Source of the DNA: an uncultured Clostridia bacterium
Lineage (GTDB): Bacteria > Bacillota > Clostridia > TANB77 > CAG-508
Length of the DNA stretch: 64,000 nt
Direction: 5' to 3'
NCBI GenBank assembly: GCA_944387505.1
Contig: CALXFG010000001.1
Location: 81,549-145,548 of the forward strand
Below are positions 4,697 to 44,400 of the stretch, piece by piece (position 1 is the stretch's first letter; every line of letters starts with the position of its first letter). The translations under genes were made by a program, and so were the position numbers. Below the pieces are notes generated by a model that was not told the origin of the DNA, ran no database searches, and saw nothing but the letters and a program-made list of their open reading frames with translations.

Positions 4697-4699
4697 ATG

Positions 4700-10318: not shown

Positions 10319-10374
10319 AATTTTTAAATTTTTTTCATTATTTTTTCTATTCAGTATTTTTTTTAATTTAATTT

Positions 10375-10890
10375 TTATTCCTCCTCTAATTGATTATTTT
10401 TATTAAAATATTTTTTTGTATTAAAAAATGAAAAAAATATTTTTAATATTTCTTCTTTTTCATCAATATTATTTACTTTATTTCCACATCTAGATAAACA
10501 TTCTTTTATTTTTAAATATTTTTCATTTAATTCTTGTTTAATAATTTCTATATTTTTTTCTTTTTTATTAATTGGATGATTCTTGATAATAATATAAAAT
10601 TTTTTAGATGACGATTTTTTATTATTATTTAAATTAGAAATATATTGAATATAATTTTGAGTTAAATTTTTTAAATATTTATTTTCTTTTTTATTAATAT
10701 TTTTTTTTATTTTGGAAATATGATGAGTTAAATCTTCTTTATTACTTTGAATTAAAATTTGAATATCAAAATGACAAGTTTTAAAAAAAAGTTTATAGGA
10801 ATTTAAAATAGCTCCTTTTTCTAAATCTGATTTTAAATTATAATTTATGGGTGTAACTTCTAATATTTTTATATATGTATTGTTTTTCAT
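10375..10890 (-). CDS. Hypothetical T4SS-associated protein; truncated paralog of the gene upstream of the main VirB4
   Basis: Its segment ...IKILEVTPINYNLKSDLEKGAILNSYKLFFKTCHFDIQILIQSNKEDL aligns with IIRKKGKQFIMVIECQGVNYDLMSGLEKNSVEQGFLQFLNTLRYPIQLYIQTRTV in the 385-aa protein at 32830-33987. Gene order is the same, upstream of a VirB4. Confidence 0.4.
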   Translation of the reverse strand: MKNNTYIKILEVTPINYNLKSDLEKGAILNSYKLFFKTCHFDIQILIQSNKEDLTHHISKIKKNINKKENKYLKNLTQNYIQYISNLNNNKKSSSKKFYIIIKNHPINKKEKNIEIIKQELNEKYLKIKECLSRCGNKVNNIDEKEEILKIFFSFFNTKKYFNKNNQLEEE

Positions 10891-11880
10891 TTCTATAACA
10901 CCCTCATTAAAAATTTGGCTAATTGGTATCCATTCTTGGACAGTTTGATTTTTAATTTTTTACCACTCTCCTTTGAAAGCATTTTACAGTCTTTTTTTAT
11001 TTTTGTCAAGAAAAATTCATCGACATAATTCGACTTTTTTTGTTTATGTAATTTTTTAATATATATTTTTTTTACTAAATTTACAATTATTTTATTTGAT
11101 TTTTTTTTTATCTTTTGTTATTTATTATCTTATTAATTTATTTTTTATATTTTATTTAAAATTATTTTTTTATTTATTATTTTTTATTAATTTAATTTTT
11201 AATTAATTAACTTTTTTATTTCATATTTTTTTATTTATATTATAATAAATTATTATTTTAATTAAATTATTTTATTTTTTATTATTATTATTTTATTTTA
11301 TTTTTTTATTATTATTTTATTTTTTTTTATTATTATTTTATTTTATTTTTTTATTAATTATTTATTTAAATTAATTATTTTATTTTACCTTTTATTTTTA
11401 ATTATTTATTTAATCAATTTTTTTCGATTATTCTTTTTATATTTTTTTGAATATTTTTTTTATTTTTGAACATAATAAAAATGTAAGGTTAATAATAGTT
11501 AAACGAAGAATGATAATAGATGATTTTATTCATTTATTATCATTCGAGCAAAAATGTAGTATGGTGTTTTATTATATTGTACTATGTCGGCGATGTGAAT
11601 ATATTACTTGTTTGTATGCTGTATTTTTATTTTATTATATTTTTTAATTTATGGATTATGGTAAAATAATATGTAATATATTTTAGTTAAGATTATTCTT
11701 ATATTTTTTAATGATTAATACTAGTCCATTTATTGGATGAATTTAGTTGTTAGTAGTGTATTAATGGTCGAGTGAATGATGAATATATGTGGTCGAAAGT
11801 TTATGCATATAGTAATATATGCTAGATTTGAAAATTATGTATATTTGTTTTAGCAGAGATTATTATTAGCTTTATTGATT

Positions 11881-11920
11881 AAAGGCAGATAATATTTTTA
11901 TTATCTGCCTTTAAATTTTT
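11881..11920. terminator. Rho-independent terminator hairpin directly downstream of gyrB
   Basis: AAAGGCAGATAA-TATTTTTA-TTATCTGCCTTT followed by an A/T run. The gyrB stop is at 11924 on the minus strand. Confidence 0.6.
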
Positions 11921-28157: not shown

Positions 28158-28679
28158 ATGGAAGCAATAATAGAATTTTTAAGAACAGATACTTTTCTAA
28201 TAATAAATGTTATTCTAGTATGCATTCTTTTTATAGGATTTTTTATTATACTAGCTAGAATTCACTCTATTCATAAATATTATAAAACTTTTTTGAAGAA
28301 ATTAGGCAATGGAGAAAATATAGAAGAAGATTTAGAAAATTACATGTATAGAGTTGAAAGGGTTGAAAAACAAAATGCAGAGATTAAAAATTTAATAGAT
28401 GTCATAGATGCCAATATGGACAGTTGTATTCAAAAGATAGGAATTGTTAGGTATAACGCATTTAAAGACACTGGAAGTGATTTGAGTTTTGCACTTGCTA
28501 TGCTAGATGAAAAAAATAATGGAGTTGTATTAAATGGTATTTATTCAAGAGAAATGTCTAATATTTATGCAAAACCTGTAGAAAATGGAAAATCAACTTA
28601 TACAATTTCAGAGGAAGAAAAAGAAGCGATACAAAAAGCCATAGAAAATAAACAAATATATAAGGTTAGAGAACAATGA
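28158..28679 (+). CDS. DUF4446-family protein
   Basis: N-terminal TM helix plus a conserved C-terminal region (GIVRYNAFKDTGSDLSFALAMLD). This is the usual gene found downstream of spo0J in Clostridia. Confidence 0.6.
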   Translation: MEAIIEFLRTDTFLIINVILVCILFIGFFIILARIHSIHKYYKTFLKKLGNGENIEEDLENYMYRVERVEKQNAEIKNLIDVIDANMDSCIQKIGIVRYNAFKDTGSDLSFALAMLDEKNNGVVLNGIYSREMSNIYAKPVENGKSTYTISEEEKEAIQKAIENKQIYKVREQ

Positions 28680-30145
28680 AGAATATAATTAATAAAATAA
28701 AAGAAAAAGATAATTTACCTGCTTTTATATTATTTTTTCTTATATCCTTAGGGATTAGTTTAAATATATATTTAGAATCAAGTGATGAAATATGGAATTT
28801 TCAAAATGTATATAAAATGTATAATGGATTTAAAATATACAAAGAAATAAATGTTATAATAACACCTTTCTTTTTTTGGATAAGTGAGGCAATATTTCAC
28901 ATATTAGGAGCAAATTTATGTATTTTTAGAATCAGTCATTGTATTTTTATGTCCATATTGTTCTTAATTACTTATGAAATGTTAAAAAAACTAGAAATAT
29001 CAAAAACTTTTTCTATGTTAACAGTATTAATGATAATTTTACAACAATTTTTTTTACTAATCAGAACAAGTTTTAACTACAATAATACGGCTTTGTTATT
29101 TTTTATAATAGGTACTTATTGTTTAATTAATGATAAAACAAGAAAAAATATACTAATTCAATCTATTATAACAAGTTTAATACTATTAACTAAACAAAAT
29201 ATAGGATTATATTATCTATTAGGTAATATACTATATTTAAGTATTTCAAAAAATGATATAAAAAATAAAATAAAAGAAATATTTAAATATATAAGTATAA
29301 TATTCTTAGTGGGAATGATCTTTATAATATATTTAATAATAGATCATAATTTAAATAACTTTTTAAACTATACTTTAGGTGGAATATTTGAATTTGCAAA
29401 TGAAAACTTGATTTTTGATTCTTCTGCTATTGTACTTATGATAGGCATTATGATTGTTAATATAGGAATGAGTATATTTTTTATAAAAAAGAATTTCTTA
29501 CTAAAAGAACAAAAGGAAAACATAAAAATATTATTTATATTTTCTATTATGCTTTCATTAGTGTGTTACCCAATTTTTAATTGGACACATATTATCATTG
29601 GAACATATTTGATGATAATAAATGTAGTATATATGGTATATCTATTGTTCAAAGATTTTAAAGATGGAATAACTAAAATATTAAAAGTAGTCAATGGAAT
29701 GATTATTTTGGCAATGATCATTTTCTCTTGTTTAAACATGTACACCTGGATTAAAGCTATAACAAGTGATGATTATCCATATTCATGGGAGAATCCTTTT
29801 TTTGGTGGTATGTTAGGAAAAGAAGAATATGAAGAAAATGAAAAAATTATTAAATATATAGAAGAAAATGAAAAAGATGTAATTGTACTATCTAATAGGG
29901 CTGCATTATATATGGTACCATTGAAAAGAAATAATGGCGATTTTGATTTGCCATTTAAAGGAAATTTTGGTATTAATGGGGTTGATGGATTAATAGAAAA
30001 AATAGATAATATGCAAAATGTACAATTTTTGATTTATAAAAATGAAGATAAAAGTATTTATCAGGAAAGTGATAGAGTAAAAGAACATATAAAAAACACC
30101 AAAAGCTATGTTGGAGAAATAGAAGGATTTGACATATATGAATAG
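28676..30145 (+). CDS. Polytopic membrane protein, possibly a GT-C-fold glycosyltransferase
   Basis: Ten or more predicted TM helices. An SSDEIW acidic motif sits in the first extracytoplasmic loop, as in GT-C / PMT_2-like enzymes. Confidence 0.4.
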   Translation: MKNIINKIKEKDNLPAFILFFLISLGISLNIYLESSDEIWNFQNVYKMYNGFKIYKEINVIITPFFFWISEAIFHILGANLCIFRISHCIFMSILFLITYEMLKKLEISKTFSMLTVLMIILQQFFLLIRTSFNYNNTALLFFIIGTYCLINDKTRKNILIQSIITSLILLTKQNIGLYYLLGNILYLSISKNDIKNKIKEIFKYISIIFLVGMIFIIYLIIDHNLNNFLNYTLGGIFEFANENLIFDSSAIVLMIGIMIVNIGMSIFFIKKNFLLKEQKENIKILFIFSIMLSLVCYPIFNWTHIIIGTYLMIINVVYMVYLLFKDFKDGITKILKVVNGMIILAMIIFSCLNMYTWIKAITSDDYPYSWENPFFGGMLGKEEYEENEKIIKYIEENEKDVIVLSNRAALYMVPLKRNNGDFDLPFKGNFGINGVDGLIEKIDNMQNVQFLIYKNEDKSIYQESDRVKEHIKNTKSYVGEIEGFDIYE

Positions 30146-30234
30146 CTATAAGAAAAAATAATTCATAATAAATTTAAATTAGTATTGACAAATCCCTAGA
30201 AAATATGTTAAGATAAAAAATGTCTTTGAGACAT

Positions 30235-30326
<92 letters not shown>

Positions 30327-30386
30327 ATAACATAAGAGTTAGATAATGTAATAATATCTAACTTTTATTTATAAATAATTATATAT

Positions 30387-30476
30387 GGAGATGTACCCAA
30401 GTGGTGAAGGGGACTGTTTGCTAAACAGTTAGGTCCCGAAAGGGGCGCGGAGGTTCGAACCCTCTCATCTCCGCCA
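30387..30476 (+). tRNA. tRNA-Ser (anticodon GCT)
   Basis: Acceptor stem GGAGATG/CATCTCC, anticodon loop TTGCTAA, long variable arm, GGTTCGAACC T-arm and an encoded CCA. Confidence 0.85.
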
Positions 30477-30673
30477 AAACAATATAAAGTATCAGCACTT
30501 TATATTATTTTTTTGTCAAAATTAATCGAATGTATATTTACAAAAATAATTTTTTGTATTAAGATAGAAGTGGTTTATTATAAAATGTATTGAAAATTCT
30601 AAAAAAACAAGGTATAATTAAATTATATAGTAAATGGAATAAGATATATTTTATAATGATAGGGGGTTGGAAG

Positions 30674-31039
30674 ATGAAAATCAATAAAAAGAAGTTAATT
30701 GTGCTAATGATTGTTTTTATGTTATGCATTCTTTTAATAAATCAAGTACAAGCAGCAACGTTTGACCCGAATCTTTATAAACCAGGTTCAACCTCTAGTG
30801 TAATTGGAGCATCAAAATTGGAGAAAATAGGAAATAAGGTTATTGGAGTTGTACAAGTTATTGGATCAATATCTTCTGTAGTAGCAATAGTAGTTATTGG
30901 TATAAAATATATATTAGGAAGTGTTGAAGAAAAAGCAGAATATAAACAAACATTAAAACCATATCTTATTGGAGCAATATTAGTTTTTGGAATATCAAAT
31001 GTTTTAAGTATTGTTCAAAATATCATAGGAGAGTTCTAA
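30674..31039 (+). CDS. VirB2/TrbC-like T4SS pilin, paralog 1
   Basis: Signal peptide followed by two hydrophobic helices. Shared core VIGSISSVVAIVVIGIKYILGSVEEKAEYKQTLKPYLIGAILVFG. Start is the ATG at 30674 with an AGGGGG RBS; the listed ORF starts upstream of that. Confidence 0.7.
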   Translation: MKINKKKLIVLMIVFMLCILLINQVQAATFDPNLYKPGSTSSVIGASKLEKIGNKVIGVVQVIGSISSVVAIVVIGIKYILGSVEEKAEYKQTLKPYLIGAILVFGISNVLSIVQNIIGEF

Positions 31040-31063
31040 AAAAGAAATGGAAGGAGGAAATAT

Positions 31064-31462
31064 ATGAGAAAAATAATAATCTTTATATGTATCTTAAGTC
31101 TATTTCTTGTCGTGATATATCCAAAAAATGTATATGCTATGTCATCATTGGATGATATATTGACCAAAGCAGATGACTTTTTAAGAATAGATGGAGGAAC
31201 GCAATCAACAGGGAATAATACACTTGGAGTACTTGCAGATCCAGATTTAAAAAATACATCTGATTTTTTATATAATACATTACTAGGAATTAGCATGATT
31301 GCAGCAGTTATTGTAGGAATGGTGTTAGGTATTAAATATATGTTAGCAACTTCAGAGGAAAAAGCTGATTTAAAACAAACATTACCAGCATATATTGTAT
31401 CTTGCATTGTTGTATTTGGAGCTTTTTCAATATGGAAACTGCTTATAAATATTATTCAATAA
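31064..31462 (+). CDS. VirB2/TrbC-like T4SS pilin, paralog 2 (most divergent)
   Basis: Signal peptide; core GIKYMLATSEEKADLKQTLPAYIVSCIVVFGA. Confidence 0.65.
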   Translation: MRKIIIFICILSLFLVVIYPKNVYAMSSLDDILTKADDFLRIDGGTQSTGNNTLGVLADPDLKNTSDFLYNTLLGISMIAAVIVGMVLGIKYMLATSEEKADLKQTLPAYIVSCIVVFGAFSIWKLLINIIQ

Positions 31463-31475
31463 GGAGAATAAATAA

Positions 31476-31832
31476 ATGAAAAACAGAAAATGTTTAAAAA
31501 TAATATGTATCATTGTTATATTTAGTATAGTATTATCAATGATTTTTTCAAAAGAAGTAGATGCATTTGCTTTAAGTGATTTAACTGGAAATACACATGG
31601 AACATCAGAAATAAGCGATATGGGAAATAAAGTTGTACAAATTGTTAGTACAATAGGTTCTATATTATCTGTAATTGTTATTATTGTTTTAGGAATAAAG
31701 TATATGACGGGGAGTGTTGAAGAAAAGGCAGAATATAAGAAAACAATGCTACCATTTCTAATAGGCGCAATATTTATATTTGCTGCATCACGTATAGCAA
31801 ATATGGTTTATCAAGTTGCAATAAATATGTAA
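31476..31832 (+). CDS. VirB2/TrbC-like T4SS pilin, paralog 3
   Basis: Core IVSTIGSILSVIVIIVLGIKYMTGSVEEKAEYKKTMLPFLIGAIFIFAAS. Confidence 0.7.
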   Translation: MKNRKCLKIICIIVIFSIVLSMIFSKEVDAFALSDLTGNTHGTSEISDMGNKVVQIVSTIGSILSVIVIIVLGIKYMTGSVEEKAEYKKTMLPFLIGAIFIFAASRIANMVYQVAINM

Positions 31833-31909
31833 ATGTGCTATAATAAAAAGGAAAGGAAAATATACGAATCCTAAACTACAATCGAATATTAATAAAAGGA
31901 GGAAGGGGT

Positions 31910-32263
31910 ATGAAAAGAACTATAAAAATATTATCAGTTGCAATCATGTTATTAATAGCATTAACAGTAACAGTTGATGCTGCATCATCAGGAGTAGCGC
32001 CAGGAACATATACTGGTGGGGGAGCTTCTGTTGATTCTATCAACTCAATAGGTAACCAAGTTATCCAAATCGTAAGTACTATTGGTTCAATCGCATCTGT
32101 TATTGTTTTGGTTGTTTTAGGTATAAAATACATGATGGGAAGTGCAGAAGAAAAAGCAGAATACAAGAAAACATTATTACCATACATTATAGGTGCAGCA
32201 TTCGTATTTGCAGCTTCAACAATTGCAACAGTTGTATTCAACTTTACAACAAACTTGGGATAA
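31910..32263 (+). CDS. VirB2/TrbC-like T4SS pilin, paralog 4
   Basis: Core IVSTIGSIASVIVLVVLGIKYMMGSAEEKAEYKKTLLPYIIGAAFVFAAS. Codon usage is unusually GC-richer than the rest of the genome. Confidence 0.7.
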   Translation: MKRTIKILSVAIMLLIALTVTVDAASSGVAPGTYTGGGASVDSINSIGNQVIQIVSTIGSIASVIVLVVLGIKYMMGSAEEKAEYKKTLLPYIIGAAFVFAASTIATVVFNFTTNLG

Positions 32264-32489
32264 TAAAAATAAGGAAAATAGAGCATGGTTGTAAAAACCA
32301 TGTTTTATTTTTTTATTTTGTTTCTTCCTTTTTTAGAAATTACATAATGCAAAAAAATATTACAAAATCATTACAGTCAAATTACAATATAATTAAAAAT
32401 GTTTTTTTTTGTATATATATGTACTTTTAGGGCGGTTTTATGTTATAATTATATATAAGTGGAATTGTATGTAAAGGAGTGAAAAACAA

Positions 32490-32837
32490 ATGAGAACATA
32501 TGAGATACCTAGAAATTATAAAGGTGAAAGTAGAATATTATATATCTTTTCTACAAAAGCATTAATTTATACAATTATTGGTATGGGAATAGGCTTAATA
32601 TTTTACTTTATATTAAATGCAATAGGTATGCAATTTATAGGAATTTTATTTGATGTTATTTGTGGTTCTATAGGTTTTGCAATAGGAACTTTTAAAATAC
32701 CAGACAATAAGAAATTTGAATTTACAAGAAAAACTGGTGGAGAAAATATTGATGATGTTGTTAAAAGATGGATAAAATTTAAGAAGAAAAAAAATAAAGT
32801 ATATATATGGAAAGAGGAGGACATGAACCATGAGTGA
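32490..32837 (+). CDS. TcpE/VirB3-like small T4SS membrane protein
   Basis: 115 aa with two TM helices and a basic C-terminal tail. It sits at the usual position before the VirB4 module. Confidence 0.5.
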   Translation: MRTYEIPRNYKGESRILYIFSTKALIYTIIGMGIGLIFYFILNAIGMQFIGILFDVICGSIGFAIGTFKIPDNKKFEFTRKTGGENIDDVVKRWIKFKKKKNKVYIWKEEDMNHE

Positions 32838-33987
32838 TAATCAAATCAGTAGCTTTTTAACGATTAGTTTAATTTTGTTAGTATGTGTATTCTTTGTATT
32901 ATTAGTTATACTTGTTGTATTAATGCTTAAAGAAAAAAGTTCTCAAAAAAGAAGTTATACAGGAAATAAGGATTTACCAGATGAAGACAAGAAAGTAAAA
33001 AAAGATGTTGAATATAATAAAAATTCCATCTTTGATTTTATGGAGTTTGACAAAGTTGAAGATAATATGATTATTAGAAAAAAAGGAAAACAATTCATCA
33101 TGGTTATTGAATGTCAAGGTGTCAATTATGATTTAATGTCTGGTTTGGAAAAAAACAGTGTTGAACAAGGCTTTTTACAATTTCTAAATACATTACGATA
33201 CCCAATACAATTATATATTCAAACAAGAACTGTAAATTTAGGAAGTAGTATCAATAGATATAGAGAAAAATTGAAAGTAATAAGAGATGAATATCTGAAA
33301 AAACAAATGGAATATAACTCAATGGTGAATTTAAATGATGAATATAGTGCAAAAGAAATTAATAATGCTAGATATGAACTAATAAAAGCACAAAACTTGT
33401 ATGAATATGGTTTAGATATTGTTAATAATACGGAAAAAATGAACCTTAATAAAAATATTTTGAAAAAACATTATTATGTTATTATATCCTATATTCCAGA
33501 AGAAAATAATAATACCGTATATGATGAAGAAGTAAAAAATATGGCTTTTTCTGACTTATATACAAGAGCACAAGCATTAATTAGTTCTTTGAGTGTATGC
33601 GATGTATCAGGAAAGGTATTAGATAGTGAAGAATTAGCAGAATTATTATACATAGCATATAACAGAGATGAATCTGAAACCTATCAATTAGATAATGCGC
33701 TAAAAGCAGGAGTAGATGAATTATATTCAACAGCTAAAAATGTATTAGATAAACGAATGGAAGAAATTAATGCAGAAATTCAGGCAAAAGCAAATATTGA
33801 AGCAAATGATGCTGCTGTGGAAGCTATGATGAATCAAGATAAACTAAGAAGAGCAAAACAAAAAGAAGAAAGAATGAACCAGCTAATTGAAGAAGTGGCC
33901 AAAGATTTATTAGATGAAAATGAAGAAATATTAGGTGAGGATGTTGTAAAAGAGGCTAAAAAAATAGTTAGCAAAAAAGCTAAATAA
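32830..33987 (+). CDS. T4SS-associated membrane-anchored protein (385 aa)
   Basis: N-terminal TM helix, then a region that resembles a VirB4 N-domain and is paralogous to the protein at 10375-10890. Coiled-coil C-terminus. Confidence 0.45.
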   Translation: MSDNQISSFLTISLILLVCVFFVLLVILVVLMLKEKSSQKRSYTGNKDLPDEDKKVKKDVEYNKNSIFDFMEFDKVEDNMIIRKKGKQFIMVIECQGVNYDLMSGLEKNSVEQGFLQFLNTLRYPIQLYIQTRTVNLGSSINRYREKLKVIRDEYLKKQMEYNSMVNLNDEYSAKEINNARYELIKAQNLYEYGLDIVNNTEKMNLNKNILKKHYYVIISYIPEENNNTVYDEEVKNMAFSDLYTRAQALISSLSVCDVSGKVLDSEELAELLYIAYNRDESETYQLDNALKAGVDELYSTAKNVLDKRMEEINAEIQAKANIEANDAAVEAMMNQDKLRRAKQKEERMNQLIEEVAKDLLDENEEILGEDVVKEAKKIVSKKAK

Positions 33988-33999
33988 GGAGGAAAGAAA

Positions 34000-35952
34000 A
34001 TGTTTGGTAAAAAGAAAGAAACGGCTAAAGTAGAGACAGTAGAAAAAGAAAAAGTAAATTTCTTAAGGAAAAAAACAATTAAAGAAATCATTGCACCATC
34101 AGGAATCGATGCTAGTAATATAGATCATTTAGAAATAATCTCTAATACAAAAAGATATGCTAGAAGCTTTTTTGTTTCACAATTACCAAGAATGTGTACC
34201 TTTCCAGAGTTATTTAGAGATTTATATCTTTTTGGAGATATTAATACTTCTATATTTATTAATCCAGTAAAAGAAGAAAGATCTCAAAATGAACTAAATA
34301 GAGTGATTAATGAATTAGAGACAGAAAGAATTGTAGCAATGGATAAAGGAAATATCAATAGAGAGAGTACAATCACACAAAAAAGATTAGAAGCAGAACA
34401 ATTAAGAGATGAAATTGCAGCAGGATTTAATAAATTATATGAAGCTTCCATTGTAGCAACACTTTTTGCATATAACTTAGAGGATTTAGATAGAGATACA
34501 AAAATGTTGACTTCAGAAATGTCAAAAACCTTAGTAAATATAAAAACAGCATGGGGAATACAAGAGGAGGCATTTCAATCAAATTTACCATTATTAGAGG
34601 ACAAAGTAAAAAAGATTCATACATTTGATAGAAACTCAATGGGAACAGTTTTTCCGTTTACAACTTCAGAAGTAGGTCACGCTAGTGGAGTTCCTATTGG
34701 ATTCAATAAACAGACGGGAACGCCAATTCTGTTTGATAATTTCCATCCTTCATTAACCAATTATAATATGGTTATATTTGCTAAATCTGGTGCTGGAAAA
34801 TCTGTTACTATGAAAACATTAGTATCCAGATCTTCTGTTCTTATGGGAATAGAAAGTTTGGCACTTGATGCAGAAGGTGAGTATACAATTGTGGCCGAGA
34901 GCTTAGGCGGAATCAATGTTGTTATTAGCCCAAACTCTAAAACAGTTATCAATTTATTTGATGTAGAAGTAGAAAGAGTAAAAGATGAAATTACAGGAAA
35001 AGAAAGAACAGTATTAAATATTGAAAATAAAGTGGAAGATGTTACGCAAGCTTTACTTACAATGGCAAAAGGAAGTACAAGAAGTACAGAAGTAAATGAG
35101 CTTACAAAACAGATTATTGCTGAATCAGTAGCAGAAGAATATGCAAGTTTAGGAATTACGAATAATCCTAATAGTTTATATAAAACAGTTAACATGGGAT
35201 TAAGAGGTGATAATTTATTCCAGAAAGAGAAGAAAGAGATGCCAACAATAGGCAGTTGGTATAAAAGAATTCAAGAAAAAGCTAGGGATAATAAGAATCC
35301 GGATTATCAATTTCACTATAGTTATTTATTAAAAGTAATGAGACAATATGTTAGAGATTTTGATGGTCAAATGGCATATTTTGATGGACAATCTACTTTT
35401 GATTTATTGGAAGGAGCACCATTTATCAATTTGGATATTTCGCAATTAGAAGAAAGATTTGCAAGACCACTTGCACAACAAATTTTACTTTCATGGATTT
35501 GGGAAAAATTTGTTAAGAAAAATAGTGAAGATAGAAGAAAAGCTACACAAAAAAGAGTTTTAGTAGATGAAGCTTGGATGTTACTTCCATATCCAGAAGC
35601 AGTAGACTTTTTAAATAAAATGGCTAGACGTGCTAGAAAAAGAAATGTATCATTGGCAATTATCTCTCAAAGATTCCAAGATTTTTATGAAAAACCAGAA
35701 GCACAAGCAGTTTTAACATCATCAGATACAAAATTATTTTTAGCACAAGATAAATCAGAAATTCAATATTTAAAAGAAGTATTTAAATTATCAGAGGGAG
35801 AAGCCAACTTTTTAGTTACATGTCAAAAAGGTGAAGGCTTACTAAAAGTTGGAGCAGATACAGCCATATTAAAAATTGTACCAACGAAAAAAGAATTTGA
35901 ATTTGTGGAAACAAATTTAAATAAATTAGCTCAAAGAAAACAAGATAGATAG
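34000..35952 (+). CDS. VirB4/TcpF/PrgJ-family T4SS ATPase
   Basis: Walker A IFAKSGAGKSVTMKTL, Walker B VLVDEAWMLL, and the C-terminal AIISQRFQDF motif. Confidence 0.85.
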   Translation: MFGKKKETAKVETVEKEKVNFLRKKTIKEIIAPSGIDASNIDHLEIISNTKRYARSFFVSQLPRMCTFPELFRDLYLFGDINTSIFINPVKEERSQNELNRVINELETERIVAMDKGNINRESTITQKRLEAEQLRDEIAAGFNKLYEASIVATLFAYNLEDLDRDTKMLTSEMSKTLVNIKTAWGIQEEAFQSNLPLLEDKVKKIHTFDRNSMGTVFPFTTSEVGHASGVPIGFNKQTGTPILFDNFHPSLTNYNMVIFAKSGAGKSVTMKTLVSRSSVLMGIESLALDAEGEYTIVAESLGGINVVISPNSKTVINLFDVEVERVKDEITGKERTVLNIENKVEDVTQALLTMAKGSTRSTEVNELTKQIIAESVAEEYASLGITNNPNSLYKTVNMGLRGDNLFQKEKKEMPTIGSWYKRIQEKARDNKNPDYQFHYSYLLKVMRQYVRDFDGQMAYFDGQSTFDLLEGAPFINLDISQLEERFARPLAQQILLSWIWEKFVKKNSEDRRKATQKRVLVDEAWMLLPYPEAVDFLNKMARRARKRNVSLAIISQRFQDFYEKPEAQAVLTSSDTKLFLAQDKSEIQYLKEVFKLSEGEANFLVTCQKGEGLLKVGADTAILKIVPTKKEFEFVETNLNKLAQRKQDR

Positions 35953-36138
35953 TTGGAGGAAAAAATGAAATTTTTTGAAAACAAAAAAACTTTAAAGAAA
36001 ATAGCGATAATGATACTTATGGTATTGCTTTTCCAATTTGGTTTTGCAACACCAGTAAAAGCGGATGATGAAGGAAATGGGGGAATATTACTCAGTCCGA
36101 TTGTTGCTTTAGTTGTTGCATTAGCTGATCGGAGCTAA
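35953..36138 (+). CDS. Small secreted or membrane protein (61 aa)
   Basis: Signal peptide MILMVLLFQFGFATPVKA followed by a hydrophobic helix. Start codon is adjacent to the VirB4 stop. Confidence 0.4.
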   Translation: MEEKMKFFENKKTLKKIAIMILMVLLFQFGFATPVKADDEGNGGILLSPIVALVVALADRS

Positions 36139-36145
36139 TACTATT

Positions 36146-36427
36146 TTGCATGAAGTCATTATGGGCCAAAGTGAGATAGGTATCGATGTGGATTTAGATC
36201 CAGATACACCTTGGTGGCAAACCTTATTAAAAGTTCTCTTAGTAGTGGCAGCAGCTGTTGCTGTTGTGGCTTTGATTGTAACGTTTACACCAGCTACTCT
36301 TTCAATAATATGGGGAGCTGTTAAAACAGCAGGAACTTTTCTGGCTGCTACTGGTTTAACATCTGTAATTGCAGTAGGAGGAACAGTAGCGGCAGCCTCA
36401 TCTTTACTGGCGAGTCGGATATTCTGA
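36146..36427 (+). CDS. TcpD-like small Ala-rich membrane protein (93 aa)
   Basis: Two Ala/Val-rich TM helices. Locally GC-rich, so the antisense ORF 36121-36459 is an artefact. Confidence 0.45.
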   Translation: MHEVIMGQSEIGIDVDLDPDTPWWQTLLKVLLVVAAAVAVVALIVTFTPATLSIIWGAVKTAGTFLAATGLTSVIAVGGTVAAASSLLASRIF

Positions 36428-36431
36428 TAAT

Positions 36432-38966
36432 ATGTTTTTACCCTTATTTTCATTTTCACCAGAGGAAATATTTAAAGGAGATATTTTATTATTTGATGTA
36501 AATTTCTTTAATCCTCAAAAGGAAGTTTATGCTAGAACAGAAATTACAACAACAACTTCAACAACAAGCACATCAGTTGACGGAGTGACTACACCTCCGA
36601 CAGACCAAACAGATACCACAGAAAGAGATATTTTAATTACAAGTGATACAGATTTACAAAAAGAACTAGACCATAGTGATGAATCATCAACAGATAGTAA
36701 TAATAATGGACTAGCATATACGACAACATCAACGAAAGTAGAAGAAAAAGTAAAATATTATTATTATATAAACGATGATGGAGAAGAAGTTGTTACTTCA
36801 AGACAAAATATGGCTTTAGAATTACAACCATTAGTTAGTCAATGGTATAATGCCATAAGAAATATTGCGATTGTAGCATCTATGTCAGTATTACTATATG
36901 TAGGAATCAGAATGCTATTATCTTCAGTATCACAAGAAAAAGCAAAATATAAGCAAATGCTAATTGATTGGGTAGTAGGCGTATGTTTATTGTTTTTTAT
37001 GCATTATATAATGGCCTTTTCAGTAGAAATTGTGCAAGCTTTTAATAAAATTATTAGTACAACAACAAGTGCAGTGGATATGGAAGATACTATAAAGAAT
37101 GGTAGCAATGGTTCAGCAGGACATCTTCAAGGTATGGATCAAATTGTATTAATGGAAGATGATGAGGAAGGGTATATTTCAGACAAATTAGAAGAATTAG
37201 GTATGAGTGAAGAATTGGTAGATGATAGTACAGATCCAGCTCAAATTATGTGGCCAACGAATTTAATGGGAATGCTAAGATTAAAAGCACAAGTTAGTTA
37301 TGGAGATATGGCCTTTGTGGGATATGGAATATGTTATGTTATTTTAGTATTGTTTACAGTATATTTCACATATGTATATTTAAGAAGGGTATTATATATG
37401 GCGTTTCTAACAATGATAGCTCCACTAGTTGCCTTAACATATCCTATAGATAAAATCAGCGATGGACAGGCCCAAGGATTTAATAAATGGTTAAAAGAAT
37501 ATATATTTAATTTATTAATACAACCATTACATTTACTATTATATACTTTATTAGTAACATCAGCTTATGAATTATCATCAACAAATCCAGTATATTCTTT
37601 AGTAGCAATTGGATTTATGATACCAGCAGAAAAATTAATGCGTAGTTTATTCGGATTTGAAAAAGCAAGTACGCCAGGTTCAGTTGCAGGTGCAGCTGCA
37701 GGTGCTGCTATGTTGAATTCAGGACTACAAAAGCTTTTACATAAAGAACCAGGCGGAAAAAATGGAAAAGGAAAAAATGGTGGTGGAGATGCAGATGGAG
37801 GAGATGAAGGAGCACCACCTAGAATAGGATATAATGCTAATGAGGAAGAAGATGAGGAAGAAGATGAGGCAGAACCTGGAGGTATAGATGCAGGTGGTGC
37901 ATCTGCTGCCGATGCAGCTCTTTATAATAATGAAGATCCTAGAACTAGAATGGAAAGAGAAGCATTAGAGGAGCAAATTGCGAATGGGGAGATAGACGAA
38001 TCAGAATTAACTAATGAGCAAAAAGCTTTATTGGAAAGGAATAATGTAGAAAATCAAGCTAATAATGAGGCAGAAGATCCAGGAATTAGAATGGAAAGAG
38101 AAGCATTAGAAGAACAAATTGCAGATGGTCAAATAAACAAAGATGAATTAACAGATGAACAAAAAGCTTTATTAGGAATGCCACAAAGTTTCAAAAGTAG
38201 ACTAAAAAATAGAGCTAAATCAAATACTTCAGCTAATAAGGATTTCTTACGTAGGGCAGGAAGTGCTGCAAGATATACACTACGACAAGGTGGTAGAAAA
38301 TTAACAAAAATGGCACCAAAAGCAATCAGAACAGGTGCAAAATTGGCAGCAGGAGCAGCATTAGGAGCAACAGCAGCAGCAGCAGGAGCAACAATTGGTA
38401 TAGCAACAGGAGACCCAAGTAATGCATTTACATTTGCAGCAGGAGCAGGTGTAGCAGGGGGAGCTTTAGGAACTTCAAGAGTCAATACAAATCCATCACA
38501 AACAAAATCAGCAGCACAAATTGCAAGAGAAAGAGCTTTTTGGGGAGAGGACTATGATAAACATGTAGCAGAAGAAAATATGAAGAAGTGGAAAAAAGAT
38601 GTTGATAAGAGAGACAATCTAGAAAGATACTTAGGAAGAGAAAAAACGAAAGAATTATATGATAATGGAACAATTGACAAATACTTAAAACATGAGATTA
38701 CAAGTGAAAAAGATATTGCAGCATTGGAAAGATTGCAAGAGAAAAATTCGGATATAAACTTCAAAGATGCTTTATTAGTATTTGATGCATATGATAAATA
38801 CGGAGATATAGACAGACAAAAAGACAAAGATAAAAAAGACATAAGAGGAGGATATGCAGAAAAATTCCAAAAAAGTGGTGCAAGTGAAAAAAGAGCTAAA
38901 GAGAAAGCAGAAAGAATTACAGGCTTAACAACAGATTTGGATAGTATCAAGAAAAATTTCCGTTAA
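36432..38966 (+). CDS. VirB6/TrbL/TcpH-like polytopic T4SS channel protein with a long repetitive C-terminal domain
   Basis: Thr-rich N-terminal segment and at least six central TM helices. The C-terminus has a Gly/Ala-rich low-complexity stretch and a ~46-aa internal direct repeat (DP.TRMEREALEEQIA.G.I...ELT.EQKALL). Confidence 0.7.
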   Translation: MFLPLFSFSPEEIFKGDILLFDVNFFNPQKEVYARTEITTTTSTTSTSVDGVTTPPTDQTDTTERDILITSDTDLQKELDHSDESSTDSNNNGLAYTTTSTKVEEKVKYYYYINDDGEEVVTSRQNMALELQPLVSQWYNAIRNIAIVASMSVLLYVGIRMLLSSVSQEKAKYKQMLIDWVVGVCLLFFMHYIMAFSVEIVQAFNKIISTTTSAVDMEDTIKNGSNGSAGHLQGMDQIVLMEDDEEGYISDKLEELGMSEELVDDSTDPAQIMWPTNLMGMLRLKAQVSYGDMAFVGYGICYVILVLFTVYFTYVYLRRVLYMAFLTMIAPLVALTYPIDKISDGQAQGFNKWLKEYIFNLLIQPLHLLLYTLLVTSAYELSSTNPVYSLVAIGFMIPAEKLMRSLFGFEKASTPGSVAGAAAGAAMLNSGLQKLLHKEPGGKNGKGKNGGGDADGGDEGAPPRIGYNANEEEDEEEDEAEPGGIDAGGASAADAALYNNEDPRTRMEREALEEQIANGEIDESELTNEQKALLERNNVENQANNEAEDPGIRMEREALEEQIADGQINKDELTDEQKALLGMPQSFKSRLKNRAKSNTSANKDFLRRAGSAARYTLRQGGRKLTKMAPKAIRTGAKLAAGAALGATAAAAGATIGIATGDPSNAFTFAAGAGVAGGALGTSRVNTNPSQTKSAAQIARERAFWGEDYDKHVAEENMKKWKKDVDKRDNLERYLGREKTKELYDNGTIDKYLKHEITSEKDIAALERLQEKNSDINFKDALLVFDAYDKYGDIDRQKDKDKKDIRGGYAEKFQKSGASEKRAKEKAERITGLTTDLDSIKKNFR

Positions 38967-39076
38967 TATAAAAGGGAGGAACTATATGATTATCTGTTAC
39001 ACAAGTGAAAATTTGTGATCATATAGTTTTTTCTTTAATAAAAACAGATGAAAATATCTATATCAAGGAGGATTTT

Positions 39077-40462
39077 GTGAAAAATTCAGGAAAGTTTAAT
39101 AAAAAAATAATGATTATCGTGCTACTTGTTATTTTTCTTATCATGATAGGAATAATAGGTGTCCTTCTTTTTCAAGAACAGTCTAAAGACGTAAACAATA
39201 CAGATTCACAACAAACGATAAACGAAACTGTAGGAACTGATTCACCACAAACATTTGAAGAAGTAAGTAATTATAATATATATTATACGGTAAAAGGTAT
39301 ATTAAATAATTATATAACAATGATAAGAGAAACAAATGGGGACGAGTATATTGATTTTGAAAGATTACAACAATCTAGGGACGAGGCAATTGCGGGATTA
39401 ATAGATGATTCAGTAAATTCAATATATAATATGCTTGATAGTAGTTATATAGAAGAAAAGAATATTACAGAAGAAGATATAAGAACTTTGGCAGAACAAT
39501 ATAGACAACAAGGAGATTATAGTAAAAATGTTGTATATAATCTAAAAATTAATGGAATGTATATGGCAGATATATCAACAGATATAAAGTTTATACTAGT
39601 AGAATTTAGTATAAATGGAAATGAGAACAATATGTTAATAAAACTAGATTTTCAAAATAGTACATATTCTATGTTTGGAGAAGAATATTTAAGTAGTAAG
39701 GGATATAACAAGGATACAGAAATTTCAAAGATAGAAATTAGTACAGATGCTATTGATTCTAATAATTATAATAGTTTTAATTTTGTAAATACAGATGATA
39801 AATATATCATTAATCAATATTTCTCAGAATATCAGACAAAATTATTAAATAATGTTGATTTTGCATATGAATTGCTAGATCAACAATATAGAGAAAATAA
39901 ATATGAAAATGCTCAAGAATTTAGCCAATATGTAGAGGAAAATTATGAATCTTTACAAAACGCATATTTAACAAAATATCAAATCAACCAATTTGATGAA
40001 TACAAAGAATATGTATGTTTGGATGAAAATAACAACTATTATATTTTTATTGAAAGAAGATTAACAGATTATAGTGTTATTCTAGACACATATACAGTTG
40101 ATTTAAAAGATTTTACAGATAAATATACTGTAGCAGATGTATCAACTAAAGTGGGAATGAATGTAGAAAAGGTGATAGATGCTATAAATGATGGAGATGT
40201 AAGATATGTTTACAACAAATTAGATGAAACATTCAGAAATAATACTTTTGGGAATATAGAAAATTTTAGAACATATGTAAATGAAAATTTCTATGACGAA
40301 AATGAAGTGGAATATTTAGAGTTTGCTGAAGAAGGAGATACATATATTTATAGTGCTAAAATAAAAAATGCACAAGAAGAAAATTCAGAAGGAAGAGAAA
40401 TTACACTTATCATGAGATTATTGGAAGGAACAGACTTTGTTATGTCATTTAATATGGAGTAA
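39077..40462 (+). CDS. TcpC/VirB8-like protein with an N-terminal TM anchor and two NTF2-like repeats
   Basis: GTG start at 39077 with an AAGGAGG RBS. One TM helix, followed by two repeated acidic, Tyr-rich domains of about 150 aa each. Confidence 0.5.
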   Translation: MKNSGKFNKKIMIIVLLVIFLIMIGIIGVLLFQEQSKDVNNTDSQQTINETVGTDSPQTFEEVSNYNIYYTVKGILNNYITMIRETNGDEYIDFERLQQSRDEAIAGLIDDSVNSIYNMLDSSYIEEKNITEEDIRTLAEQYRQQGDYSKNVVYNLKINGMYMADISTDIKFILVEFSINGNENNMLIKLDFQNSTYSMFGEEYLSSKGYNKDTEISKIEISTDAIDSNNYNSFNFVNTDDKYIINQYFSEYQTKLLNNVDFAYELLDQQYRENKYENAQEFSQYVEENYESLQNAYLTKYQINQFDEYKEYVCLDENNNYYIFIERRLTDYSVILDTYTVDLKDFTDKYTVADVSTKVGMNVEKVIDAINDGDVRYVYNKLDETFRNNTFGNIENFRTYVNENFYDENEVEYLEFAEEGDTYIYSAKIKNAQEENSEGREITLIMRLLEGTDFVMSFNME

Positions 40463-40478: not shown

Positions 40479-41447
40479 ATGAATAGATTCATTAGATGGT
40501 ATAATCAAAATAGAAAATCAATCTGGGCAACGATAGCGATAATAGTTATTATCATTGGTGTTATACAATTGATTAACTATTTTTATAAAGTAAGAAATGA
40601 AGAAGAATTAAGTAATTTAGGAAACCAAATTCAAAATACAACTATAAATTATAATTACAATAATGTAAGAATAGAAGACAATCGCTCTGGTTTAACAGGT
40701 GAAGTAATTTCAGAAAATCAAGAAACAGAAATAGGCGTAATAGATGATTTTATAAATTACTGTAATGAAAATAATCTGCAAAGTGCTTATGATTTGCTGA
40801 CAGATGAATGTAAAGAAGAAATGTATCCTACATTAGAAGATTTTCAAGAAAGTTATTATAATCAAGTATTTAATAACGTAAAGAAAAATGTATCAGTGGA
40901 AAATTGGATAAAAAATATATATAAAGTAAATTTCAATGAAGATTTTTTATCAACAGGTAGATATTCTAAAGAAAATACAATTCAAGATTATATAACTGTG
41001 GTAGCAGTGAATAATCAATATAAATTAAATATAAATGGATATATTGGAAGAGAAGAAATTGCAAAATCAAAAGAAGATAATAATATTACAATAGAAGTAG
41101 AGACGACAGATATTTATATGGATTATCAATTTTATAAAATAAAAGTGACAAATCACTCAGAAAATACAATTTTACTAGATGATGGGGTTAATATCAATGC
41201 TATGTATATAGAAGATGAAAATGGAAATCAATATTCTGCATATACGCATGAATTAAATGAAGGACAATTAATTGTTAGTCCAAGAGAAACAAAAGAATTA
41301 GAAATTAGATATTATAGTAAATATGCCTCTGAAAAGAAAATAGATAAAGTTGTATTTTCAAGAATGATACTAAATAATGAAACATATACAACATTTCAAA
41401 ATAAAAGCTTATATCGTAATTATGGTAATTTTGAAATACCAATTTAG
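40479..41447 (+). CDS. Membrane-anchored T4SS accessory protein, possibly VirB8/PrgL-like
   Basis: N-terminal TM helix (WATIAIIVIIIGVIQLI) followed by a globular Y/N-rich domain. Confidence 0.4.
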   Translation: MNRFIRWYNQNRKSIWATIAIIVIIIGVIQLINYFYKVRNEEELSNLGNQIQNTTINYNYNNVRIEDNRSGLTGEVISENQETEIGVIDDFINYCNENNLQSAYDLLTDECKEEMYPTLEDFQESYYNQVFNNVKKNVSVENWIKNIYKVNFNEDFLSTGRYSKENTIQDYITVVAVNNQYKLNINGYIGREEIAKSKEDNNITIEVETTDIYMDYQFYKIKVTNHSENTILLDDGVNINAMYIEDENGNQYSAYTHELNEGQLIVSPRETKELEIRYYSKYASEKKIDKVVFSRMILNNETYTTFQNKSLYRNYGNFEIPI

Positions 41448-41468: not shown

Positions 41469-44400
41469 ATGGATGAAGAAGTAAAAAATCAATTGAAGCG
41501 TAATTGGAGAATAATATCAAAACGATTATTAAGGGTAGGAATTGTAGTTCCTCTTATAGTGATCATTATTTTGGCTGCGTCGGTTTATCAAATAAAAGTA
41601 GAAGATGGAACATTTGAAGAAGATGACTGGTCAAATACACAGTATGGTGCTAGTCAATATACAAGTAGTGTTTCTATTGGAACAGATGGAAGTATGACGA
41701 CGAATATGACGGCACAGGAATTATGGGACAAGTTAAGAGAGGAAAATGGTAGAGTCAATTTATATCTTGATGGACCAGAAAAATTGCAAAAACTAATGAA
41801 TGCAGAACTGGTAACACAATATTTAGATACAAGAGGAGAAGACGAAATAGATGATCCAATTGATTGGGATAAAATATCAGATGTTAATTCTAATGAAGTG
41901 CAAGGAATTATAAAATTAAAAAGAGCACAAGCTGATGGAACTACCATAACCATGACGTATAAGGATCCAGAGACTTTCCAATCATATATTGATGCGTATA
42001 ATAGTAGTGGTTCAGAAAGTGATAGAAATAGAGCATTAAGTTATTTTACATTAGAACAATCAACAATTGCGAATGGTTCAGCAACACCAATACAGGCAGG
42101 TGAAACCATCTATATTCCAGATGGATTAGGATCTTCACACACGTATATGGGATGGCAACAGATAACAGCAACTGACTCCAATCAATATAAACTAAGAGAA
42201 CAAGCGGGGATGAATTTTGATGAGGAAGGTTTTGGACGAATTAATGGTCGATATGTGATTGCTTGTACAACAACATTTGGTGAAGTAGGAGATTATGTGG
42301 ATTTTTATCAAGCAGATGGAACTATTATACCATGTATTATAGGAGATATAAAAAATCAAACGGATGATGGATGTACAGAATGGGGACATGATAATGGTTT
42401 AACAGTTGTTGAATTTGTCGTAGATTATGATTCTTGGTATAACCCAGACCATGTTAATCCAGGTACACCAAATTGTCATCCAGAATGGCATCAGAACCTT
42501 ATAAAAGCAGTAAATGGAGGAAGTTATTTTGACAATCCTAATTTTGGAGAGGAAGATATTAAACCAAATGAAGATTCTGATCCTGGTTCAGGAACAAGTG
42601 GAAGTGAATTATATTGGCCAACAGATGGAACTAATGTAACATCAGAATTTGGGCCAAGAACTTCAACATCAAGTGTTGTATCAAGTGATCATAGAGGAAT
42701 TGATATAGGTGTATCGACCGGTACAAATGTATATGCATGTGAAGCAGGGACGGTAACAACTGCAGGATGGAGTGATTCCGCAGGAAACTGGGTAGTAATT
42801 GATCATGGTAATGGTTATGTGACAAAATACATGCATAATAGTCAACTTTTGGTTTCAGCAGGAGATACAGTAGAAAAGGGACAAACAATTGCAAAGTCAG
42901 GTAATACGGGAAATTCAACAGGACCACATCTTCATTTCCAAATAGAATATAATGGAACAGCTGTAGATCCATTAAACTTTAAATATAATAATGGTATGGG
43001 AAGTGGAACAGGAGGAATTGGAAGTAGTACAGGAGGAAGTTCAAATTCAACAACAACTACATATTATGCAAAAGTGGCAACGTGGAATCAAGTAACAGAT
43101 ACGGTAGAGTCAGATGACCCAGATGTTGAAAGTTATTCAACCACAACATATAATATGACAACTACAAACATTAACTATCAAGAATTTGTAAAAGGATATA
43201 CAATGCCATTTGATTATTTATGGGTTTTATTAGTTATGAGTGAAGATCAAGATTTTGTATTAGACTTAGCAGATTTAGTTTTAAATAGTGATATAGAAAT
43301 TACCGTACATGATAATTTATCAGTTAATACAAATGTTAATACATATACCTATACAGAAAACGAAAAAATTATATCAAGAGATGTAAGAATTGTAGGAAAT
43401 TCACAAATTAATGGATTAAAAATTGAATATCCAGCAGATTCTGCACCACATGTTAATTCAGTAGATAGAACAGTGGTACATACAGTTATTACAACAACAA
43501 ATACATTAGATATATCTTTAACAAAAGCAAATGTATGGATTGTAAATTATACAAAAGAATATACATATGAAGTTCCAGAAGATATAGTATCAGAAGGTGG
43601 TGCAGGTGCACTAGAAGATATAGCCTATACTGATGAACCAGATCACACAACACAAACTGATGATATTGGCTATGGAGAATCACAAAGGCAGTTGTATCAT
43701 AATCAGTGGGTACAAGCAAGTCCAGATATTGTTACAACACTAGAACGTGTTTATTCTGATTATTATTATTCTACAACCAATAGAAATGAGTCAATAACAA
43801 ATACTTTAGAAAGAAACACATATGTAGAACCTCCAAAAGCAGACATAATTGAAAAAACAAACAAAAATTCTACTGAGCCTAATTTTGTAACAATCCTATT
43901 AGATGGTGGTAATCGTAAAGCAAAACATGCTATTTTGGGTGCTTCTGAATGGTTATTTGATTTATTAGAAAAAAATGAAAATAGAATAGACCCAGTCATG
44001 ATTGATTTGACAAAATACTTACTATATAAAGCATCAGGAAATGAAAAGTATTGGGATCCAGATGAACCATTTGACTTTAGTATATTTGATCCAGATAATT
44101 TTGCAAGTAATGATAATGGTTCAAGTGGTATAGAAGGTGTACCTGGACAAATCTATGATTACTTACTTAAAAAAGGAGTACCGCCAGTAGGAGCAGCGGC
44201 AATATTAGGAAATATGGATGGAGAAACAGGAGGTACATTTGATACAAGTTTGGTAAATGGTACTGGCCATTCTGGTTTATGCCAATGGGGTGGAGGAAGA
44301 TTACAAAACTTAAAGAGATTGGCAAATAGTAAAGGAAAAGATTGGACAGATGTAGAAGTACAATTAGATTTTCTATGGCAAGAATTGAATGATTCGTATT

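Follow-up and report, generated by a model that had tools for sequence, protein, structure and literature searches.

Why would a single secretion locus on a bacterial chromosome carry four different pilin genes in a row? The question is raised by a 64-kb stretch of DNA from an uncultured Clostridia bacterium (contig CALXFG010000001.1, positions 81,549 to 145,548), here called the window, in which four co-oriented plus-strand open reading frames (ORFs) occupy positions 30674 to 32263, ahead of the genes of a type IV secretion system (T4SS). A first-pass annotation had taken these ORFs for tandem VirB2/TrbC-like pilin genes, and both its coordinates, which are exact, and its family assignment hold. 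The analyses below lead us to favor, with somewhat better than even confidence, a reading in which the four genes represent ancient, specialized pilin classes whose products are made together and jointly assembled by a domesticated T4SS of the Gram-positive type, which lies near the origin and resembles the FATA class of mating-pair-formation systems (MPF_FATA-like).

Four tandem genes encode predicted VirB2/TrbC-type pilins

The array comprises the genes for paralog 1 (30674 to 31039, 121 residues), paralog 2 (31064 to 31462, 132 residues), paralog 3 (31476 to 31832, 118 residues), and paralog 4 (31910 to 32263, 117 residues), which are assigned below to classes A, B, C′, and C, respectively. 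They are separated by gaps of 24, 13, and 77 nt, and a strong Shine–Dalgarno sequence (GGGGG at paralog 1) lies 5–9 nt before each ORF. In profile searches all four proteins match the Pfam families TrbC/VirB2 (PF04956) and T4SS_pilin (PF18895) rather than an unrelated family of small membrane proteins. Paralogs 1 (34.5 and 32.5 bits, respectively), 3 (44 and 39.9 bits), and 4 (41.8 and 44.4 bits) exceed both gathering cut-offs, while paralog 2 is marginal, scoring 22.8 bits against a cut-off of 27.9 for TrbC and 26.4 bits against a cut-off of 26.6 for T4SS_pilin. The sole match of the pilin profile among PDB sequences, a weak one (E 0.31), is to TrwL, the VirB2 homologue of R388. A PrgI-like gene starts 226 nt past paralog 4 and a VirB4 gene 1.7 kb past it, a linkage conserved in 80 loci. 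On these sequence grounds, the assignment of the array to VirB2/TrbC-type pilins attached to a T4SS is sound.

Each paralog has a signal peptide, a variable segment, and two hydrophobic helices with a short charged loop between them. In paralog 1, the AxA rule places a putative signal-peptidase site between VQA and AT, and in an AlphaFold2 model of paralog 4 (predicted local distance difference test score, pLDDT, of 77.8) a signal helix (residues 2–27) is followed by a flexible segment (residues 28–41) and a hairpin of two helices (residues 42–76 and 79–116). Alignment of the four proteins reveals invariant core residues (G-I-K-Y, followed by E-E-K-A, then K and T in the pattern ..K.T, and a final F) and bears out the contrast, drawn in the first-pass annotation, between a shared core and a divergent N-terminal region: copies are 22–38% identical between the signal peptide and helix 1, compared with 36–68% in the core and 34–50% over their full lengths. 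Paralogs 3 and 4 are indeed the most similar pair, but the description of their cores as nearly identical overstated the case, as they share 68% of core residues and ∼83% of helix 1 and the loop.

Paralog 4 is also richer in G+C (GC) than the other paralogs (34.2% vs. 26.6–28.6%), as had been noted, and two further genes of the cluster reach 33–34%. However, the excess does not come from GC-rich codon choice: it lies at codon position 2 (0.42), because the protein is rich in Ala, Gly, Ser, and Thr, and GC at third positions is 0.195, compared with 0.13–0.16 in the other paralogs. This compositional origin of the excess, together with orthologues in every related species and the status of paralog 4 as the most conserved copy, speaks against the recent acquisition or gene conversion that had been suggested for it, and we reject the former.

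The array occupies a fixed, origin-proximal position in gut Clostridia

The window covers the chromosomal origin region. Its minus strand carries dnaA, dnaN, recF, gyrB, and gyrA, the GC skew changes sign at ∼19 kb, and the plus strand runs from rnpA through yidC, jag, mnmE, mnmG, rsmG, parA, parB, a DUF4446 gene, a PMT_2-like gene, and two tRNA-Ser genes to the array, which is close to the origin. In a scan of one genome per species, a close relative of the VirB4 encoded in the window was found in at least 527 species-representative genomes. The best 80 of these relatives, which are 81–98% identical, were taken to a table of loci built from ORF calls, an in-house pilin hidden Markov model (HMM), and BLAST; array counts refer to the 63 loci with intact upstream sequence, and in what follows L-numbers label related loci or contigs compared with the window and P-numbers label proteins of the pilin family. 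The genomes are metagenome assemblies labeled uncultured Clostridia or Clostridium sp., and they come from human, chicken, rabbit, mouse, sheep, and goat guts, so that the host association that the first-pass annotation had left conditional can be taken as a gut association.

Two gene contexts were observed. In dozens of species the order is mnmG-rsmG-parA-parB-DUF4446-(PMT2)-tRNA-Ser ×2-pilins-PrgI-TrsD-VirB4-VirB6-like onwards, as in the window, and in about 25 other species the pilins follow prs-YqeY-M16-M16. The array stands at the same position in all 63 loci with intact upstream flanks, with three genes in 34 and four in 29 and never fewer, and it is therefore not a chance feature. The exact paralog 4 protein is encoded with the same layout on 23 metagenome contigs that were read. 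Our literature search found no paper describing a T4SS with such a pilin array in these Clostridia.

Ancient pilin classes and natural fusions point to joint use

Exactly one gene of the paralog 2 type (class B), a divergent type whose exposed segment is longer and whose loop reads SEEKADLKQTL, is present in each of the 63 complete loci. Pilin orthologues at the same position are more alike than pairs taken across positions (a median of 0.56 for position 4, compared with 0.43–0.48), and the paralog 3 type, which is most similar to paralog 4, is present in about half of the species and missing from three-gene arrays. The array thus appears to be made up of three ancient classes, A, B, and C, plus a lineage-specific duplicate, C′, by which paralog 3 would have arisen from the C type. 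The single class B gene per locus, the orthology by position, and the existence of three-gene arrays lacking C′ together indicate that the array did not arise by recent amplification. Classes that are kept in every species fit the functional diversification that the first-pass annotation had envisaged.

A profile search with the pilin family returned 6222 clusters at 50% identity, and many of the top matches are polypilins, in which two to five divergent pilin modules are joined by short linkers behind one signal peptide, with no internal signal peptides. Examples of polypilins are P0241, P0242–P0245, P0061, and P0068. One di-pilin is encoded in the same origin- and parB-proximal context as the array of the window (L088, 8001 to 8591), where it adjoins genes of the paralog 4 and paralog 2 types. 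Such fusions force equimolar co-expression of their modules and therefore argue that the members of an array work together in one structure; combined with the packing of the window genes at 13–77 nt, their presence in relatives argues for joint rather than alternative use of the four pilins. From this we infer co-assembly.

A model for co-assembly, with the last pilin as a candidate major subunit

The last gene of the array is set apart from the others. A promoter-like sequence (TTGAAA-17-TATAAT, 11 of 12 consensus positions; 30590 to 30618, plus strand) precedes paralog 1, and an extended −10 promoter-like sequence (TTGCAA-17-TGcTATAAT; 31816 to 31844, plus strand) lies just before paralog 4; both are consensus matches only. 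A terminator-like hairpin with a T-run follows paralog 4 (32272 to 32314, plus strand); two such sites were found, compared with 0.3 expected, and this one is the only terminator-like site of the array. The layout is conserved across species: judged likewise by consensus matches only, an extended −10-like motif lies ahead of the last pilin in 24 of the 73 related loci compared, and in 52 of them a hairpin with a T-run separates the last pilin from the machinery genes. The last pilin is usually offset by a spacer of 60–130 nt. This arrangement fits a highly expressed major subunit, insofar as consensus matches predict promoters and terminators. A search of positions 30000 to 32900 against Rfam returned the two tRNAs only, with no riboswitch or known regulatory RNA.

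These observations can be combined into a mechanism. All four pilins would be exported via Sec and cleaved after an AxA site. As helical hairpins they would then span the membrane, where the conserved EEKAEYK loop would face the cell interior and the N-terminal segment, which is variable, would lie outside. The adjacent VirB3/TrsD/VirB4/VirB6-like machine would extract them from the membrane, and they would form one heteromeric VirB2-type fiber or wall-spanning conduit, in which paralog 4, with its own promoter-like site and terminator, would be the major subunit and the others less abundant and specialized. The T4SS, taken to be co-opted because no relaxase, coupling protein, or integrase lies nearby, would serve cell–cell contact or exchange and not self-transfer, and a large clade of low-GC, uncultured Clostridia of the gut would inherit it along with the chromosomal region around the origin.

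Several points weigh against this model. To our knowledge, a pilus has been shown for no monoderm T4SS. Known conjugative pili are built of five-fold layers, onto which three or four pilin classes fit poorly. Foldseek comparison of the paralog 4 model with the PDB returned only nonspecific helical hairpins at E > 1, a result that does not discriminate a pilin hairpin from other hairpins. The expression pattern is predicted from promoter and terminator assignments that are consensus matches alone, and genes for a coupling protein or a relaxase could lie beyond the part of the genome that was covered, namely the 64 kb of the window and 10-kb flanks. Lastly, divergence of the T4SS is only weakly correlated with divergence of ParA/ParB (Spearman 0.28): species with 96–99% identical ParA/ParB can have VirB4 proteins 82–83% identical and TrsD proteins 49% identical (L054 and L073 vs. 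the window), and the reverse also occurs. Pure domestication does not predict this incongruence, which points to movement of the locus or recombination between lineages, although chimeric assembly may also contribute; the pattern seen across species is suggestive of a fixed locus at which alleles are replaced.

The pilins evolve rapidly without measurable positive selection

The ratio of nonsynonymous to synonymous substitution rates (dN/dS) was calculated by the pairwise Nei–Gojobori (NG86) method for the window and three close species (synonymous divergence, dS, ∼0.5), a blunt test that could miss a few selected sites. The ratios were 0.01–0.02 for ParA/ParB, 0.02–0.03 for VirB4, 0.13–0.23 for paralog 4, 0.21–0.49 for paralogs 1–3, 0.38–0.44 for the VirB6-like protein, and 0.35–0.71 for the wall hydrolase of the cluster. 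Within the pilins, values were 0.33–0.67 in the exposed segment and 0.05–0.22 in the core (0.05 in the core of paralog 4), and no region exceeded 1 in these pairwise comparisons, save for a value of about 1 in the signal peptide of paralog 3. At nonsynonymous sites the pilins change 10–20 times faster than VirB4 or ParAB, and across 30 species the median all-against-all identity of the last pilin is 49%, compared with 84% for VirB4, 87% for ParA, 81% for ParB, and 63% for RsmG. The pilins thus evolve fast, yet the blunt NG86 test reveals no measurable positive selection on them.

Rapid change of this kind is what gives weight to a different view of the array, in which the paralogs are interchangeable variants of one exposed subunit that are used singly or in shifting proportions, to evade host antibodies or phages or to suit different target cells. 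Variability of the proteins is greatest in the exposed N-terminal segment, the nonsynonymous rate far exceeds that of VirB4 or ParAB, closely related species have sharply different alleles of the whole locus, and the thousands of clusters returned by the family search attest to extreme diversity; moreover, the idea has been cited for other arrays (PMC12102498). However, the dN/dS of the exposed segment remains below 1, the ancient classes are retained by position with one class B gene per locus, and all four pilin genes are identical across the six independent metagenome contigs that carry the array. An inverted-repeat search at the array yielded AT-rich chance pairs only, with no inverton, silent cassette, or other cassette-like structure, and operon-like spacing and fusions that impose equal co-expression are not what alternating variants would lead one to expect. 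We consider such alternative use unlikely, and the antigenic diversification suggested by the first-pass annotation finds no support in these data.

The locus shows signs of recombination but lacks hallmarks of a conjugative element

The incongruence between the T4SS and its housekeeping neighbors also bears on whether the cluster could be the mating-pair-formation part of an integrative and conjugative element or of a chromosome-mobilizing system, which entered at tRNA-Ser, has its relaxase and coupling protein encoded elsewhere, and uses the pilins for contact between donor and recipient. The cluster does start right behind two tRNA-Ser genes, a classic integration site: tRNA-Ser (UGA; 30235 to 30326, plus strand) at its upstream edge, found by ARAGORN and by Rfam (tRNA, 53.5 bits), and tRNA-Ser (GCU; 30387 to 30476, plus strand), also found by both. 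The pair lies ahead of the array in every scanned locus that has the origin context. Outside the clade, the nearest relatives are carried by plasmids, with VirB4 43% identical and the same gene order, the second context (prs-YqeY-M16-M16) shows the block in another chromosomal setting, and two mosaic contigs contain abrupt switches of identity. In L003, a left side 75% identical to the window is followed by an integrase island at the tRNA-Ser site and then by a right side 99.5% identical; in L006, compared with window positions 30693 to 37442, 100% nucleotide identity over 4.75 kb gives way to 84–89% and then to ∼55–65%. These switches could reflect recombination or assembly chimeras.

Against a conjugative element stands the content of the locus itself. 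Neither the Pfam-scanned ORFs of the window nor the inspected flanks of related loci yielded a coupling protein (VirD4/TcpA), relaxase, or integrase, and no att-like repeat of the 3′ end of either tRNA-Ser was found that would mark an element boundary. Megablast of 12 kb against PLSDB plasmids returned no near-identical DNA, tblastn of paralog 4 against plasmids gave no match at E 1e-3, and no relative of the VirB4 was found on the viral contigs of IMG/VR. In addition, dozens of species have the cluster at one and the same chromosomal site, and VirB4 is under housekeeping-like constraint. We thus read the locus as a chromosomal, origin-proximal cluster and not as a conjugative element, a point that the first-pass annotation had missed, and we regard a conjugation module as more improbable still than a set of alternative pilins. 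Least probable, and doubtful in our view, is a coupling-protein-less machine for DNA uptake, like Helicobacter ComB, or for release, secretion only, with the pilins as a short wall-spanning channel: although a VirB2, B3, B4, B6, and B8-like set without a nearby VirD4 resembles ComB (PMC12857230), and recombination signs at the locus would fit a naturally transformable clade, no component of the cluster points to DNA handling, the analogous T4SS of Patescibacteria is essential while the competence gene comEC is dispensable (PMC12857230), and large shuffled wall hydrolases and multiple pilin classes are foreign to ComB.

The T4SS cluster downstream of the array

The genes that follow the array, all on the plus strand, are by predicted content a minimal Gram-positive (MPF_FATA-like) T4SS set. 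The first encodes a PrgI/VirB3-like small membrane protein (32490 to 32837, 115 residues) that scores 25.7 bits with Pfam PrgI, against a cut-off of 27, and is conserved in position in all loci. It is followed by a 385-residue TrsD-like protein (32830 to 33987), which resembles the N-terminal part of VirB4 (Pfam PF26593, TraC-like, from precomputed matches, and a weak match to NCBIfam VirB4_plasma), and by the VirB4-like ATPase (34000 to 35952, 650 residues), with the Pfam domains P-loop_TraG, DUF87, and AAA_10. The CD1110-family VirB4 model of NCBIfam scores 208 bits on this ATPase, below its equivalog cut-off of 325. Two small ORFs (35953 to 36427), one for a secreted protein of ∼57–61 residues and one for a membrane protein of 93 residues, are called in other assemblies too.

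The next gene encodes a polytopic, VirB6-like membrane protein of 844 residues (36432 to 38966) with weak matches to NCBIfam MMCAP2_0566, pLS20_p028, and TraJ. Its N-terminal part contains a pilin-like hairpin (residues 133–190) with the loop SQEKAKYKQML, which scores 26.5 bits with T4SS_pilin and 33 bits with the in-house pilin HMM. In some species (L035, L083, L086) the VirB6-like protein is present as two or three tandem paralogs, which brings to mind the VirB6 duplications of Rickettsiales. A VirB8-like bitopic protein (39074 to 40462) is modeled with an N-terminal membrane helix and three NTF2-like domains (AlphaFold2 pLDDT 90.1), and Foldseek matches the model to NTF2-like folds, including the VirB8-like OrfG of ICESt3 (7pkw/8s7l, E ∼0.01). 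A conserved bitopic protein of 322 residues (40479 to 41447) has no family match and is 30–78% identical in nearly all related loci.

The cluster continues with a cell-wall hydrolase of 1206 residues (41469 to 45089), in which a domain search found Peptidase_M23 and a phage-tail lysozyme and for which a VirB1-like role may be proposed. The domains of this hydrolase vary by species: M23 and phage lysozyme in the window are replaced by NlpC/P60-CHAP, beta-lactamase-fold, and glucosaminidase domains in L062 (9333 to 12884) and by GDSL, beta-lactamase-fold, amidase_3, and 3D domains in L081 (15866 to 20185). A small ORF of 141 residues (45123 to 45548), with no family match and present in some loci only, ends the cluster. 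Directly after it, at 45630 to 47991, the window carries genes for an ABC ATPase and a large membrane partner; the ATPase recurs there in many species, at 62–86% identity.

Upstream of the array, the tRNA-Ser pair (30176 to 30476 of the window) is an insertion hot spot. In L003, an island with an integrase, an HTH_17 protein, and an S24 repressor (3700 to 8255) sits at the tRNA-Ser site together with an 86-bp duplication of window positions 30176 to 30261, and in L081 a sulfatase gene lies between the two tRNAs (3766 to 5925), with an extra pilin-like ORF (2821 to 3297) just upstream of the first. Between the DUF4446 gene and the tRNAs, the window encodes a PMT_2-like (GT-C) membrane glycosyltransferase (28676 to 30145), which was detected in about a dozen related loci only and is very divergent (36–81%); it is conceivable that such an enzyme glycosylates the Ser/Thr-rich N termini of the pilins. 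Farther away, between gyrA and gyrB, ∼9 kb (2720 to 11900) are extremely AT-rich, with a GC content of 8–10% at 5000 to 8000. This stretch holds a second VirB4-like ATPase (8549 to 10318, minus strand), 26% identical to the main VirB4, along with a Lys/Ile/Asn-rich ORF of 338 residues, an ORF of 171 residues, a helix-turn-helix regulator, and nearly 3 kb free of ORFs. It has the appearance of either a T4SS-bearing island in decay or an unusual insert of low complexity.

Relation to known pilin systems

The closest known analogue of the array appears to be the pilin array of Patescibacteria, which it parallels feature by feature but within Bacillota. The T4SSs of Southlakia epibionticum ML1 and Nanosynbacter lyticus TM7x, judged from published descriptions (PMC12102498), are, like that of the window, monoderm systems with an MPF_FATA-like VirB4, a separate TrsD-like protein, PrgI/VirB3, and VirB6, tandem divergent PF04956/PF18895 pilins, peptidase and lysozyme genes downstream, no nearby relaxase, and a location near dnaA/rnpA. 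In a survey of Patescibacteria, in which TrsD is described, VirB4 was derived from MPF_FATA, TrsD was abundant, homologues of PrgI and VirB6 were present, 441 VirB2 arrays of 2–11 genes each were counted, relaxases were present in few genomes, and T4SS clusters were often near dnaA/rnpA (PMC12102498). In Southlakia, a six-gene pilin array is essential (PMC12857230), as are the peptidase and lysozyme genes downstream of virB4 (PMC12102498), and a role in contact or exchange has been proposed for the T4SS pilin arrays of Patescibacteria. There are also differences. The host of the window system belongs to spore-former-type Clostridia, with SpoIIR and Germane genes in the window, and not to the candidate phyla radiation (CPR); its arrays are smaller, with three or four genes of fixed classes; full-length identity within the array exceeds the CPR average of ∼25%; and its cluster, unlike that of Patescibacteria, has linked genes for a clearly VirB8-like protein and for a hydrolase of the VirB1-like kind.

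Other systems share fewer features with the window. Like it, Anaplasma and Bartonella are host-associated and have a nonconjugative T4SS with several VirB2 paralogs in tandem, the exposed parts of which vary, but theirs are of the diderm MPF_T kind and serve to deliver effectors to eukaryotic cells, whereas the window system is of the monoderm type, its paralogs form conserved classes, and its dN/dS values carry no sign of immune-driven positive selection. Ehrlichia provides a further case of a virB2 paralog family. For the paralogs of Anaplasma and Bartonella a role as alternative variants has been proposed (cited in PMC12102498). ComB of Helicobacter pylori shares VirB2-4 and a VirB6-like protein and the lack of an adjacent coupling protein or relaxase, but it is a diderm system with VirB7-10 and a single pilin, ComB2, and the homology to it seen here goes no further than the superfamily level. 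A Tad-type pilus cluster of the uncultured gut order TANB77 is likewise a conserved "pilin" cluster of uncultured low-GC gut Clostridia, but with a CpaF/TadA ATPase, TadB/C, and type IV-like pilins, and the paper makes no mention of a T4SS or VirB2 (PMC11680825); we considered whether this published pilin could be the same system and rejected the idea, since it belongs to the Tad pilus.

The closest plasmid relatives are found on Clostridium botulinum plasmids of 134–144 kb (for example NZ_KT897276.1, L087), where VirB4 is 43% and the TrsD-like protein 30% identical and genes for pilin-like, PrgI-like, TrsD-like, VirB4, VirB6-like, and hydrolase proteins follow in the same order. In contrast to the window, the cluster is plasmid-borne and has one pilin-like gene, annotated as hypothetical (9225 to 9641 of NZ_KT897276.1) and detected only by the in-house pilin HMM. 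Single-copy VirB2-like pilins therefore exist in Gram-positive plasmid T4SS clusters, and the presence of one pilin gene at the corresponding position agrees with the first-pass view that a multigene array is unusual.

Significance

A 2025 review states that VirB2 pilins are absent from Gram-positive T4SSs, with Patescibacteria as the sole exception (PMC12857230). The loci described here add, contrary to that statement, a bona fide Bacillota lineage, common in human and animal guts, with VirB2-like arrays in a chromosomal T4SS whose VirB4 is as conserved as its housekeeping neighbors. The C. botulinum case indicates, further, that pilins of Gram-positive conjugation clusters can go unrecognized when annotated as "hypothetical protein". 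The Clostridia offer a second, independent place in which to ask what pilin arrays do, and their natural polypilin fusions provide a handle on how different pilins assemble together.

The system also suggests a hypothesis open to testing, namely that cell–cell contact mediated by a T4SS is a necessity for some of the uncultured Clostridia of the gut. In a bolder form, to which we give little credence, the clade may need a T4SS like that of Patescibacteria, with a heteromeric pilus, to make obligate contact with other gut bacteria, for example for uptake or exchange, with fast-changing pilins, VirB6-like proteins, and shuffled hydrolases setting partner specificity. If true, such obligate contact would help to explain the resistance of the clade to cultivation, and it would place the origin of the CPR system, or a parallel to it, inside Bacillota.

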